From Escherichia coli (GTDB lineage Bacteria; Pseudomonadota; Gammaproteobacteria; Enterobacterales; Enterobacteriaceae), in assembly GCF_003334305.1 (NCBI RefSeq), contig NZ_QOWS01000008.1: a stretch of 64,000 nucleotides of DNA; one strand, written 5' to 3'. This document shows positions 1 to 4,687 of this stretch, piece after piece. The notes under the pieces are model-generated. The model did not search any database. It was not told the origin of the DNA and saw nothing but the letters and a program-made list of their open reading frames with translations. How positions within the stretch are numbered: the first letter of the stretch is position 1; every line of letters starts with the position of its first letter. The position numbers and the translations under genes are program-made.

Positions 1-52
1 GCGTGACGCCGTTAAACATCTGCTGCAAGAAATATAAAAACTGCTCAGACAT
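1..52 (-). CDS. livH: Branched-chain amino acid ABC transporter permease LivH, N-terminal 17 codons only (gene runs off the window start)
   Basis: Reverse complement of 1..52 reads ATG TCT GAG CAG TTT TTA TAT TTC TTG CAG CAG ATG TTT AAC GGC GTC ACG = MSEQFLYFLQQMFNGVT, matching the LivH N-terminus as remembered; sits directly downstream of livK as in the livKHMGF operon. Confidence 0.6.
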   Translation of the reverse strand, partial: MSEQFLYFLQQMFNGVT

Positions 53-99
53 AAGGTAACCTTTCTAAACCCGCCCGTTTTTCACGGGCGGTGGGATGA

Positions 100-1209
100 T
101 CACTTGGCTGCCGTGGATGAACCGTCGGCGTGCCACTGGAAGACACCAAAATCAAATCCCTTAAGATCGCCTTTTTCATCCCAGTTCAGCGGCCCAATCA
201 CGGTGTTTGCACCGTTTGCTTTTAAATCTTTCACCAGCGCCAGCGGCTCATCGCTGCCGGTACGCTCAAGGGCTGTTGCCAGAGATTGCACCGCCGCGTA
301 AGTGATCCAGACATAAGGCCCGGACGGATCTTTCTTGTCTGCTTTCAGCGCATCAACGATGCCCTGGTTTGCCGGATCCTGGTCATAGCGTTTTGGCATG
401 GTGACCAACATGCCTTCGGCAGCATCGCCAGCAATATTCGACAGCGACGCATTACCCACACCTTCCGGCCCCATAAACTGGGTTTTCAGGCCAACGGAAC
501 GGGCCTGGCGCAGCATCTGCCCCATTTCCGGGTAGTAACCGCCGTAGTAAACGAAGTCGATGTTTTCTTTTTTCAGGCGGGCGATCAGCGCGGAGAAATC
601 TTTCTCGCCAGCGGTAATGCCGTCGAAGAAAACAACATTGGCGTTAGCCGCTTTCAGCCCGTCCTGCACCGAACGTGCCAGCCCTTCGCCATATTGTTGT
701 TTGTCGTGAATGATGGCGATGCGCTGGGGCTTCACCGTCTCAAGAATGTATTTTGCCGCCGTTGGCCCCTGGGAAGAGTCCAGCCCGGCAGTACGCATAA
801 TGTGTTGATAACCGCGTTGGGTCAGCTCCGGGTTGGTCGCTCCCGGCGAGATCATCAGAATACCTTCGTCTTCATAGATATCTGACGCAGGCTGGGTAGA
901 AGAAGAACACAGATGACCAATAACGTATTTAATGCCGTCATTAACGATTTTGTTGGCGACCGCAACGGCTTGTTTCGGGTCGCAGGCGTCGTCATATTCC
1001 ACGCCAACCAGCTTGTCGCCCTTAATTCCCCCTTTGGCATTAATGTCTTTAATCGCCTGACGCGCGCCGTTAAATTCCATATCACCCCACTGGGCAATCG
1101 GGCCGGACATCGCGCCGACAACGGCGACTTTAATATCGTCAGCCATAGCGGTGTGTGAAATTGCCAGTGCAATCATCCCTGCGATGATAGTTTTCGCATT
1201 CCGTTTCAT
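100..1209 (-). CDS. livK: Leucine-specific periplasmic binding protein LivK
   Basis: Translation [37 protein letters not shown]... (369 aa); start placed at MKRNAKT inside the 387-aa ORF. Confidence 0.93.
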
Positions 1210-1632
1210 AGTCAAAAATCCCCATTCGTGATGTTGTGTTGCTTTGTTTTTATGTGTTAACAAATCAGACTGTTCTTTTTTTATACTGCACTGTTTTTGC
1301 CTGTCTGATTAAGGGTTTAGCGCAGTATTTTGTGATAATAGCGATTAAAATCCCTATTTTTCAGTCGATTAAGAACAGATAATATTCTGAATTTATTGAT
1401 AGATAAACAGAAAAAAGTGCCTTTGTCAGCATAAAATAACGGCACAAAGGGCGGAATAATTCACTACCATTCAGGGGATTATGCTGGGTATTTTTCATTC
1501 TCTAATGTTTTAACTTTGTAATTATTGCTGTTAAAAAATTAATCACCTGCCAAAAGAAATAAAAAAGAGAAAGCCTCCGATTAAATTATTTCGCTACACT
1601 GGTTCCACTTTTGTGATTTACACGGGTTACCC

Positions 1633-2016
1633 ATGAAGCTGACCATCATTCGATTAGAAAACTTTAGCGACCAGGACCGGATTGACCTGCAAAAGATCTG
1701 GCCGGAGTATTCCCCTTCCTCTTTACAGGTTGACGATAACCACCGTATCTACGCCGCGCGTTTTAACGAGCGCCTGCTCGCTGCCGTACGGGTAACCTTA
1801 AGCGGCACCGAGGGAGCACTGGATTCCCTGCGTGTGCGGGAAGTCACCCGACGTCGCGGTGTGGGGCAATATCTGCTGGAAGAGGTTTTGCGTAACAATC
1901 CTGGCGTTTCATGCTGGTGGATGGCGGATGCAGGCGTGGAAGATCGCGGTGTGATGACGGCGTTTATGCAGGCACTGGGATTTACGGCACAGCAGGGCGG
2001 CTGGGAGAAGCGTTAA
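1633..2016 (+). CDS. panM: PanD maturation factor PanM/PanZ (YhhK), GNAT fold
   Basis: 127-aa ORF MKLTIIRLENFSDQDRIDLQKIWPEY... at the conserved position between livK and livJ. Confidence 0.85.
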   Translation: MKLTIIRLENFSDQDRIDLQKIWPEYSPSSLQVDDNHRIYAARFNERLLAAVRVTLSGTEGALDSLRVREVTRRRGVGQYLLEEVLRNNPGVSCWWMADAGVEDRGVMTAFMQALGFTAQQGGWEKR

Positions 2017-2057
2017 TCGTCAAGTTTGATTTCAAAAGTGATGACCAACGAGAAATT

Positions 2058-2157
<100 letters not shown>

Positions 2158-2215
2158 TGAAGCAACGTACTCGATATTAGCAATTTGGCGGCAACCCAAA
2201 GTTGCCGATTAATGA

Positions 2216-3319
2216 TTACTTCGCATCGGTTGCCGTGCCGTTGGCGTGCCAGTCAAATACGCCGAACTCAAAGCCTTTCAGATCGCCTTTCTCATCCCAC
2301 GTCAGCGGCCCCATCACGGTATCAACCGAGTTCGCTTTCAGGTATTTGGCGATTTCAGCCGGATCGTCAGACTGATTCAGGCCCGCCTGCAAAGATTGCA
2401 GCGCGGCGTAGGTGGTCCAGACGAACGCGCCACTTGGATCCTGTTTTTTCGCTTTGATGGCGTCAACAATGGGTTTGTTCGCCGGAACCTGATCGTAGTT
2501 CTTCGGCTTGGTCACCAGCAGCCCTTCCGCTGATTCGCCCGCAATGTTAGACAGCGAAACGTTAGCCACACCTTCCGGCCCCATAAACTGAGTTTTCAGC
2601 CCTGCCGCGCGTGCCTGACGCAGGATTTGCCCCATTTCCGGGTGATAACCGCCGTAGTAAACGAAGTCGATATTCTCTTTTTTCAGACGCGCCACCAGCG
2701 TTGAGAAATCTTTTTCCCCGGCGGTGATACCATCAAAGAACACCACGTTAGCATTGCCTTTCTTCAGGCCGTCCTGCACCGCTCGCGCCAGACCTTCGCC
2801 GTATTGCTGTTTGTCGTGAACGATAGCAATACGCTGCGGTTTCACTTTCTCAAGAATATATTTCGCCGCCGTCGGCCCCTGGTCGGAGTCCAGGCCGGTG
2901 GTGCGCAGGATCAGCTGATAGCCACGGGCGGTCAGCTCCGGCGCGGTTGCCGCTGGGGTGATCATTAAAATGCCTTCGTCTTCGTAGATGTCAGACGCAG
3001 GCTGCGTTGATGAAGAACAGAGGTGACCAATCACATATTTAATGCCGTCGTTAACGACTTTGTTCGCCACCGCAACCGCCTGTTTCGGGTCACAGGCATC
3101 GTCATATTTTACGATTTGCAGTTTGTTGCCTTTAATGCCGCCTTTAGCGTTGATATCCGCAACCGCCTGCTCTGCGCCGGTAAACTCCTGGTCACCGTAC
3201 TGCGCAACCGGACCGGACATTGCGCCCACGACCGCGACTTTAATATCTTCTGCCAGAGCCATATTGCTGAATGCCAGCGCGATACATCCTGCCAGTAACG
3301 CTTTACCCTTTATATTCAT
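2216..3319 (-). CDS. livJ: Leu/Ile/Val periplasmic binding protein LivJ
   Basis: Translation [42 protein letters not shown]... (367 aa); start placed at MNIKGK inside the 386-aa ORF; paralogue of livK. Confidence 0.93.
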
Positions 3320-3589
3320 CCTGAGAATCCCCATTCTTCTGGTTATTACGTGTGTTGTGGTGTTGTGATTCAGCACTTTATTTCGTTTTATGCATGACTA
3401 CCCGTGCTTTAGCAGCATACTCTGCTAAAACATACCCCATTTTTATGATATTGGAATAGCTATTTTGACAGTTTATTAACAATCTGCGTGGGGATTGACG
3501 TTTTGCCGGAGGGGGAATTGATTATTGTAGAGGCCCAAAAAACAAAAACCCCGGACTCTCATCCAGGGTTCTCTGCTTAATAGCGGAAA

Positions 3590-4444
3590 TTACGCTTCAA
3601 TAGCGGCGCGAAGTTTTTTCATCGCGTTCTTTTCCAGTTGGCGCACACGTTCAGCGGAAACACCGTAACGGTCAGCCAGTTCCTGCAACGTGGACTTGTT
3701 GTCTTCGTCCAGCCAGCGCGCACGGATGATGTCCTGGCTGCGTTCGTCCAGACCCTGCATCGCGTCGGTCAGACGGTTTGCCGCCTGCTCTTCCCAGTTA
3801 TCATCTTCGATGCCGTCGGCAAAGTTAGATGATTTATCCTGCAGATAGAGCACCGGTGCCATCGGCTGGCTGTCGGAATCGTCGTCGGAAAACAGGTCAA
3901 AGGTCATGTCCTGTGCCGCCATACGTGATTCCATCTCACGTACGTCTTTGCTGGTTACGCCCAGTTCACGGGCCACCATTTCAACTTCATCCTGATTAAA
4001 CCAGCCCAGACGCTGCTTGGTTTTACGCAGGTTGAAGAACAGTTTGCGCTGCGCTTTGGTAGTCGCAACTTTGACGATACGCCAGTTACGCAGAACGTAT
4101 TCGTGGATCTCTGCTTTGATCCAGTGGACGGCGAAGGAGACCAGGCGCACACCCACTTCCGGGTTGAAACGGCGCACTGCTTTCATCAGGCCGATGTTAC
4201 CTTCCTGAATCAAATCCGCCTGTGGCAGGCCATAGCCCGCATAATTACGAGCAATATGAACAACAAACCGCAGGTGAGACAGGATCAGCGTTTTAGCTGC
4301 TTCCAGATCGCCATGGTAATGCAGCTTTTCAGCCAGCGCCCGCTCCTCGTCAGCCGACAACATCGGCCACGCGTTAGCTGCCCGGATGTAGGAATCCAGG
4401 TTGCCAACTGGGGCTAAAGCTAAACTTTGCATTTTGTCAGTCAT
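3590..4444 (-). CDS. rpoH: RNA polymerase heat-shock sigma factor sigma-32
   Basis: 284-aa translation [51 protein letters not shown]... matches RpoH. Confidence 0.97.
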
Positions 4445-4687
4445 TCAAATCCTCTCAATCGATATCTTCTGGCGCTTCAGTGGTAGCAACAACTGTGCCA
4501 GAGCTTAAGAGCAACGAGGTTATCATTCACTGTTTTATCAGACCGTGATTTTATCCACAAGTTCAATGCAAGCTTGTGAATAAATTACGCACAAAATGTG
4601 ACATAGAGATGAAATACCGGGAAGAGACAACGGGATCTCTTTCCCTGCTACGGAACCCATTGCAGGGAAGAGTATAACACGCTTTTA

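Follow-up and report, generated by a model that had tools for sequence, protein, structure and literature searches.

What does a short, GC-rich palindrome do between the first two genes of a textbook ABC importer operon? The start of the window, by which we mean the whole stretch of 64,000 nucleotides analyzed here, raises this question because it contains the junction between livK, the gene for the periplasmic leucine-binding protein at the head of the livKHMGF operon, and the permease gene livH. The window is a segment of the Escherichia coli chromosome: each of the 5426 complete E. coli genomes has a match to its first 400 bases, at 100% identity in strain ECONIH4, and both livK and livH are annotated under the match. 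The genes are read from the minus strand, and their spacer comprises 47 nt (livK stop at 102..100, livH ATG at 52..50) with the following elements in the order of the mRNA:

100..102 (-): livK stop codon UGA, 8 nt upstream of the hairpin
92..99 (-): UCAUCCCA, directly 5' of the stem, includes the AUCCC box (97..93)
71..91 (-): GC-rich RNA hairpin of the livKHMGF mRNA, as characterized below by structure, energy, covariation, and E. coli alleles
91..84 (-): 5' arm of the hairpin, CCGCCCGU
83..79 (-): loop of the hairpin, GAAAA
78..71 (-): 3' arm of the hairpin, ACGGGCGG
67..70 (-): GUUU tail directly 3' of the stem; 67 is the 3' end found by Term-seq in K-12
60..65 (-): livH Shine-Dalgarno region GAAAGG, outside the hairpin and 5 nt downstream of it
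50..52 (-): livH start codon, with the 3' edge of the hairpin 18 nt upstream

The livK-livH spacer forms a GC-rich hairpin

The two halves of the palindrome are a perfect inverted repeat of 8 nt, spaced 5 nt apart (window 71-78, CCGCCCGT, and 84-91, ACGGGCGG), which on the mRNA (minus) strand reads CCGCCCGU-GAAAA-ACGGGCGG. Its stem of 8 bp, 7 of them G-C, gives a folding energy of -16.1 kcal/mol on the minus strand (z = -4.56 compared to dinucleotide shuffles, 1 of 200 of which equals it), and with these properties the element has the GC-rich stem-loop of an intrinsic terminator; the allele of K-12 folds with -15.7 kcal/mol. The hairpin that a first-pass annotation of this DNA had placed at 71-91, between the livK stop and the livH start, is therefore real, as judged by the inverted repeat and the folding-energy check, and its position is borne out by the 47-nt spacer between the two annotated genes. 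The stem of 7 bp and loop of 7 nt given there describe the same element, but with the closing U-A pair omitted.

The hairpin is selected as an RNA structure

We obtained LivH loci from 80 Enterobacterales species and extracted every livK-livH spacer. All LivH relatives recovered are at least 88% identical, so that the comparison stops short of braC-braD of Pseudomonas and other distant systems. When hairpins of -12 kcal/mol or better that end 15-21 nt before the livH AUG are counted as strong, such a hairpin is found in 51 of the 80 loci, compared to 30 of 240 shuffled upstream sequences and 36 of 235 control anchors inside livK. These 51 strong hairpins represent 43 distinct sequences and at least a dozen unrelated stem families (for example CCGCCCG/CGGGCGG, CUCUGCGGGC/GCCCGUAGAG, CCUUCCGG/CCGGAAGG, GCCUCUGCC/GGCAGAGGC, and GCCCCCG/CGGGGGC), and the loops of the orthologous hairpins vary between 3 and 9 nt.

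Covariation was assessed in a plain, unfitted MAFFT alignment of 35 of the 51 hairpins. The share of paired cells in this alignment is 87.7%, as opposed to 70.3% in shuffled alignments and 40-59% with the partner slid, and compensatory (both-side) changes occur in 7 of the 8 stem pairs. Cells with a double change number 42 where 12.8 are expected, a count reached in 0 of 500 shuffles, and RNAalifold recovers the stem independently. The mRNA strand also folds more stably than the opposite one, by a mean of 1.4 kcal/mol (29 vs 13, Wilcoxon p = 0.0017, for sequences that are phylogenetically non-independent).

Within the species, the spacer is present in each of the 5426 E. coli genomes with an identity of at least 90%, and the stem is near-invariant. 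A set of 9 spacers (from the window and 8 sampled genomes) yielded 7 distinct alleles that differ in the loop, in the 5' arm, or, for two alleles, by a change of UC to AA in the 5' flank between stop codon and stem. The window strain differs from K-12 by the loop only (UGAAAAA in the window, UAAAAUG in K-12). Two alleles with C to U changes in the 5' arm, CCGUCCG and CCGUUCG, still pair through G.U on the mRNA strand (-13.4 and -10.6 kcal/mol, respectively), and on the opposite strand the same alleles have A.C mismatches (-7.5 and -4.8 kcal/mol). Given the covariation, the strand-biased stability, and these G.U-keeping alleles, we conclude that purifying selection maintains the hairpin as an RNA structure in the liv mRNA.

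An element without any function, be it a chance palindrome, a DNA-level site for protein binding, or a remnant of the REP type, is very improbable in view of these data. It could be suspected since the element is short (21 nt), the intergenic DNA of E. coli is rich in palindromes, and REP elements are found downstream of livJ at a distance of 2 kb. Yet a single-copy element that covaries across many stem sequences with loops of 3-9 nt, whose stem hardly varies in 5426 E. coli genomes and whose G.U asymmetry points to RNA, does not fit this description. As specific identities, we rejected a DNA-level palindrome (because the G.U pairs favor one strand and both loops and stems vary) and a REP/BIME repeat, given that the element occupies one place per genome, that the pattern CCGCCCG-N3-9-CGGGCGG has 1 match in 64 kb (0.00 expected), and that Rfam offers no match. 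The Rfam scan covered window positions 1-4600 and returned nothing at the hairpin at E up to 10; sub-threshold, REP-like matches to naRNA4 are located at 2015-2181 and not at the hairpin.

Several spacers are organized differently. In Trabulsiella (L037 and L038), a natural deletion leaves a spacer of 34 nt that lacks the GC hairpin but keeps the AUCCC box and the ribosome site. Spacers of Yersinia (L058, L061, and L062) contain AUCCCC...GGGGGAU hairpins around 70-95 nt upstream of the livH AUG that are followed by UUUUC-rich tails, i.e., a canonical-looking terminator replaces the U-less hairpin beside the ribosome site. Large palindromic insertions upstream of the hairpin are seen in some other spacers (L024:1316-1500 and L049:1191-1500, also in L020 and L033). 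The one in L024 matches the sequence of the ERIC2 primer, AAGTAAGTGACTGGGGTGAGCG, and looks like an ERIC element. As a single case, the weakest hairpin allele (CCGUUCG, with two G.U pairs and -10.6 kcal/mol) is found in E. coli A1.S1.65 together with a livK that is annotated as a frameshifted pseudogene.

An RNA 3' end of K-12 lies directly past the stem

Curated Term-seq data of K-12 MG1655 contain a 3' end at 3596418 on the minus strand (Adams 2021, eLife, Supplementary file 1; PMC7815308). It is classified as "primary" for livK with 27,317 mean reads, is flanked by ...CCGCCCGTAAAATGCGGGCGGGTTT on its 5' side and AGAAAGGTTA on its 3' side, and is listed in the sheet "M63 0.4" only, which stands for minimal medium (M63 glucose; PMC7815308). 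MG1655 has its livH ATG at 3596403 and its livK stop at 3596451-53, which places this end on the final U of GUUU, at a distance of 4 nt from the stem and 15 nt from the downstream livH AUG, so that the RNA ends in ...CGGGCGGGUUU. It corresponds to position 67 of the window, with the data coming from K-12. In this strain, whose hairpin has a different loop than that of the window strain, a steady-state 3' end is thus found where a protective stem-loop would leave it, directly past the stem. That it is listed for M63 only fits the fact that rich medium keeps liv repressed through Lrp and leucine.

Other datasets contribute little at this site. The bicyclomycin (Rho) data of Adams 2021 show no Rho region here; for a treatment in LB, they would be expected to carry no information on liv. 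There is no livK entry in the supplement tables of Dar & Sorek 2018 PLoS Genet (differential decay) or of SMRT-Cappable-seq, and our literature search retrieved no paper that discusses the hairpin or the 3596418 end. We presume that the genome-wide study of differential decay was performed in rich medium, where liv would be repressed.

A steady-state 3' end is compatible with processing or termination alike, and the sequence downstream of the stem bears on the choice between them. The 8 nt that follow the stem, GUUUAGAA, contain three U (GUUU, then AGAA), and 7 of the 8 are A or U. One reading of this tail is a leaky intrinsic (Rho-independent) terminator or attenuator at which some polymerase passes end at the hairpin and GUUU(AGAA), giving a livK-only transcript. 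A GC-rich stem, three U within an A/U-rich stretch, and a mapped end on the last of these U are what such a terminator would have, and a hairpin with a real U-rich tail exists in the same spacer of Yersinia. A TransTermHP-style score of the tail is -2.73, compared to -7.15 for a perfect U15, a value that we ourselves assess as marginal. A U-tract of 3 nt is, however, no U-rich tract directly 3' of the stem, and a scan for promoter and terminator consensus sequences (at least 5 T in 8) left the hairpin site uncalled. Intrinsic terminators normally release the transcript 7-9 nt from the stem, so that an end 4 nt from it looks trimmed; the position of the 3' end therefore suggests trimming.

The orthologues argue in the same direction. 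In the 8-nt tails of their 51 hairpins, such as ACAGAAAA and GACUAGAA, the number of U ranges from 0 to 4 with a mean of 2.3, that of A averages 3.7, and 0 of 51 have at least 5 U in 8 nt. With tails this poor in U across species, the conserved feature is the stem and not a terminator. Altogether, we regard the leaky terminator as unlikely, although weak termination in E. coli and a protective stem-loop need not exclude each other. Earlier statements that the hairpin has no U-tract and is less likely to be a terminator hold in part. A canonical tract is indeed absent, which fits a stabilizing role, but three U do follow the stem (GUUUAGAA), so that the first statement is nearly right, and since GUUU ends at the mapped 3' end, the second has to leave room for weak termination.

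A protective stem-loop as the likely origin of a livK-only mRNA

We favor, with moderate confidence, the explanation that the hairpin is a 3'-end-defining stem-loop that blocks exonucleases and thereby creates a stable livK-only mRNA that raises LivK over LivHMGF. In this model, livKHMGF transcripts would be cut in, or terminate within, the livH region and would then be trimmed 3' to 5' by PNPase or RNase II until these enzymes stall at the GC stem. The product that remains would be a stable and translatable livK-only mRNA with the end ...CGGGCGGGUUU, full-length mRNA would supply livHMGF at a lower steady-state level, and one promoter would consequently yield several-fold more LivK than membrane and ATPase subunits. 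Of this model, the structure, its selection as RNA on the transcribed strand, a 3' end found in vivo in K-12, and the protein excess are observed; that the end forms by trimming rather than termination, and that the hairpin causes the excess of LivK, is what we infer from them.

The protein excess is apparent in proteome data calibrated by ribosome profiling (Mori 2021, Dataset EV9, A1-1), which give mass fractions of 1.13e-3 for LivK, 1.68e-4 for LivH, 2.13e-4 for LivM, 1.58e-4 for LivG, and 2.35e-4 for LivF. After normalization of these fractions by protein length, the molar excess of LivK at the protein level is around 5.6x over LivH, 6.1x over LivM, 4.9x over LivG, and 3.1x over LivF. Such an excess of protein could stem from translation efficiency alone. 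The stable stem-loop lies in the spacer just 3' of the more abundant cistron, and it is kept in 51 of 80 species. In the orthologues, the stem never starts less than 8 nt from the livK stop codon, a distance at which it may stay folded while ribosomes terminate. The suggestion that the hairpin stabilizes mRNA and underlies differential expression, made from the sequence in the first-pass annotation, agrees with a 3' end 4 nt past the stem and with the molar excess of LivK.

The spacing between hairpin and livH start codon is fixed

The distance between the 3' edge of the hairpin and the livH AUG is 18 nt in 29 loci and 17 nt in 11 (40 of the 51), whereas the livK stop is anywhere from 8 to 112 nt away, with all insertions, including ERIC-like elements, upstream of the hairpin. 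Immediately before the stem, 28 of the 51 loci with a strong hairpin have kept a (Y)AUCCC box despite their differing stems, and these comprise nearly all Enterobacteriaceae; the insertions are always upstream of this box. In the alignment, the AAGG core of the livH Shine-Dalgarno sequence is almost invariant across orthologues. A model in which the hairpin does nothing else than protect the 3' end of livK does not predict this fixed spacing, which is a hint of some function in connection with the livH ribosome site.

The stem spans 91..71, while the Shine-Dalgarno region (65..60) and the AUG (52..50) are both outside it, and a local ribosome-site hairpin was rejected as an identity for this reason. 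The earlier idea that the hairpin itself mediates translation coupling finds no support for the same reason. In silico disruption of the stem (arm-flip mutants) caused no consistent shift in the predicted accessibility of the livH Shine-Dalgarno sequence and no clear insulator effect. The folding of window positions 45-205 instead predicts long-range pairing of the spacer with livK codons, involving the following segments:

176..202 (-): hypothetical long-range partner within the livK coding sequence (10-residue stretch), predicted pairing
99..92 with 183..176 (-): predicted helix of UCAUCCCA with UGGGAUGA
70..65 with 189..184 (-): predicted helix of GUUUAG with CUGAAC
61..58 with 194..191 (-): predicted helix of GGUU (Shine-Dalgarno) with GGCC
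54..50 with 202..198 (-): predicted helix of UUAUG (AUG) with CGUGA

In the first of these helices, UCAUCCCA is perfectly complementary to UGGGAUGA, which covers the livK codons W-D-E (inverted repeat 92-99 / 176-183). All four helices are part of both the MFE and the centroid structure (14 contiguous bp plus 4 and 5 bp), and the fold has a z-score of -2.08. Among 1154 livK windows, 176..202 is the best duplex partner in E. coli (-29.3 vs -18.6 kcal/mol), and its equivalent is the best or second best partner in around 11 of 20 Enterobacteriaceae. The codons of 176..202 show the top synonymous conservation within the last 146 codons of livK (0.91, with a mean of 0.70 and 0.89 for the next window), and RNAalifold retains the Shine-Dalgarno and AUG helices with 94-97% of cells paired. 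Across species, we found compensatory changes in none of the long-range pairs. Natural changes rather break pairs without compensation, as is the case for GAU to GAC in Citrobacter and Phytobacter and UC to AA in O157, and the tail helix is paired in 60% across species.

These results bear on the alternative that the element acts on livH translation, with the hairpin, the AUCCC box, and the ribosome site as one module. It could either block re-initiation or 70S scanning by ribosomes coming from the heavily translated livK, or the helix with livK codons could mask the livH Shine-Dalgarno sequence and AUG until ribosomes on livK open it (coupling). What makes this idea attractive is that the hairpin is spaced to the livH AUG and not to the livK stop, that the AUCCC box stays while stems change, and that the predicted helices of E. 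coli recur in the MFE and centroid structures, in the duplex ranking, in the Shine-Dalgarno and AUG helices of RNAalifold, and at the codons with the highest synonymous conservation. We nevertheless find it doubtful: long-range pairs show zero compensatory changes and are broken by natural ones, the tail helix is paired in 60% only and the fold reaches just z = -2.08, disrupting the stem in silico changes accessibility in no consistent direction, constraints on the coding sequence and on the ribosome site can account for the conservation, and this model leaves the RNA end at the stem unexplained.

A combination of both functions would be a three-part module of AUCCC box, GC stem 17-18 nt before the AUG, and livH ribosome site that folds onto livK and masks the livH Shine-Dalgarno sequence and AUG, with the stem also capping the livK-only mRNA. 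We think that this is improbable. If true, the module would gate livHMGF translation by ribosomes on livK, and translational repression at the livK leader, where the known livK regulator GcvB would act, would pass down to the whole transporter.

Comparison with known intercistronic stem-loops

The protective stem-loop that we favor has its closest precedent in the malEFG operon, where the stem-loops (REP) between malE and malF selectively stabilize the binding-protein mRNA (Newbury et al. 1987, as summarized in PMC5927463). Selective stabilization of the binding-protein gene has likewise been described for the ABC operons mal, pot, art, his, and met (Dar & Sorek 2018, PMC5927463). As at malE-malF, a stable stem-loop directly follows the periplasmic binding-protein gene that opens an ABC importer operon, an RNA 3' end maps to the structure, and the binding protein exceeds the membrane subunits. 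Unlike the malE-malF stem-loops, the livK hairpin is a non-REP, single-copy element of 21 nt that is located 18 nt from the next start codon, and its effect on decay is inferred.

Precise 3' ends just past terminator-like stems that block PNPase and RNase II are known from E. coli transcripts without U-tracts (Dar & Sorek 2018, PMC6061677). The livK hairpin shares with the stem-loops of these Rho-dependent transcripts a terminator-like energy, the lack of a U-rich tail, and a 3' end directly downstream, but it is found inside an operon whereas theirs are at the end, and its dependence on Rho, PNPase, or RNase II is hypothetical. With intrinsic terminators and leaky intra-operon attenuators, it has in common a GC-rich hairpin followed by U and an RNA end within these U; it differs from intrinsic terminators by having three U, by orthologues that keep the hairpin and miss the tract, and by an end at 4 instead of 7-9 nt. 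In SRPS operons such as cip-cel of Clostridium, intergenic stem-loops 3' of the more abundant gene set the stoichiometry (PMC4423207, PMC8219983). The livK hairpin resembles them as an intergenic stem-loop on the 3' side of the more abundant gene, though those operons belong to other organisms with other RNases, and a processing site in liv is hypothetical. Regarding the predicted long-range fold, the livH Shine-Dalgarno sequence and AUG would pair with livK codons around 100 nt upstream, much as in MS2 coat-replicase and rpmI-rplT, the classical cases of translational coupling in which an upstream coding sequence masks a ribosome site over a long range. In contrast to these cases, the pairing in liv is a prediction without covariation, and the hairpin itself excludes the ribosome site.

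We regard the hairpin as an experimentally uncharacterized case of the known protective or 3'-end-forming intercistronic stem-loops after an ABC binding-protein gene, and the interpretation given in the first-pass annotation is supported in part. The hairpin offers a concrete, testable cause for the excess of LivK over LivHMGF in a textbook operon. It also extends the known cases in which an intercistronic stem-loop uncouples a binding-protein gene from its permease by one that is single-copy and not a REP. In practical terms, a livK-only transcript is to be expected when the livK-livH junction is edited or RNA-seq data of the operon are read. The principle has been familiar since malEFG, which makes the general significance modest, and the unusual aspects are limited to the conserved spacing, the AUCCC box, and a possible fold that masks the ribosome site.

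Further RNA 3' ends near livK and livJ

A second abundant 3' end maps to MG1655 3597520 on the minus strand, at nt 41 of the livK ORF (around 1169 (-) in the window), again in M63 only (Adams 2021). It directly follows the stem AUCAUC-GCAGG-GAUGAU, a small hairpin at window 1172-1188, and may reflect premature termination or a processing product of the livK leader. Downstream of livJ, at window 2026-2207 (-), a short hairpin (2189-2207) is accompanied by two REP-like palindromes, in a region where the window strain has a small insertion relative to K-12. A Term-seq 3' end of K-12 at 3598392(-) is located at the distal REP, so that the mRNA of the paralogous binding protein, livJ, also ends at a stem-loop.
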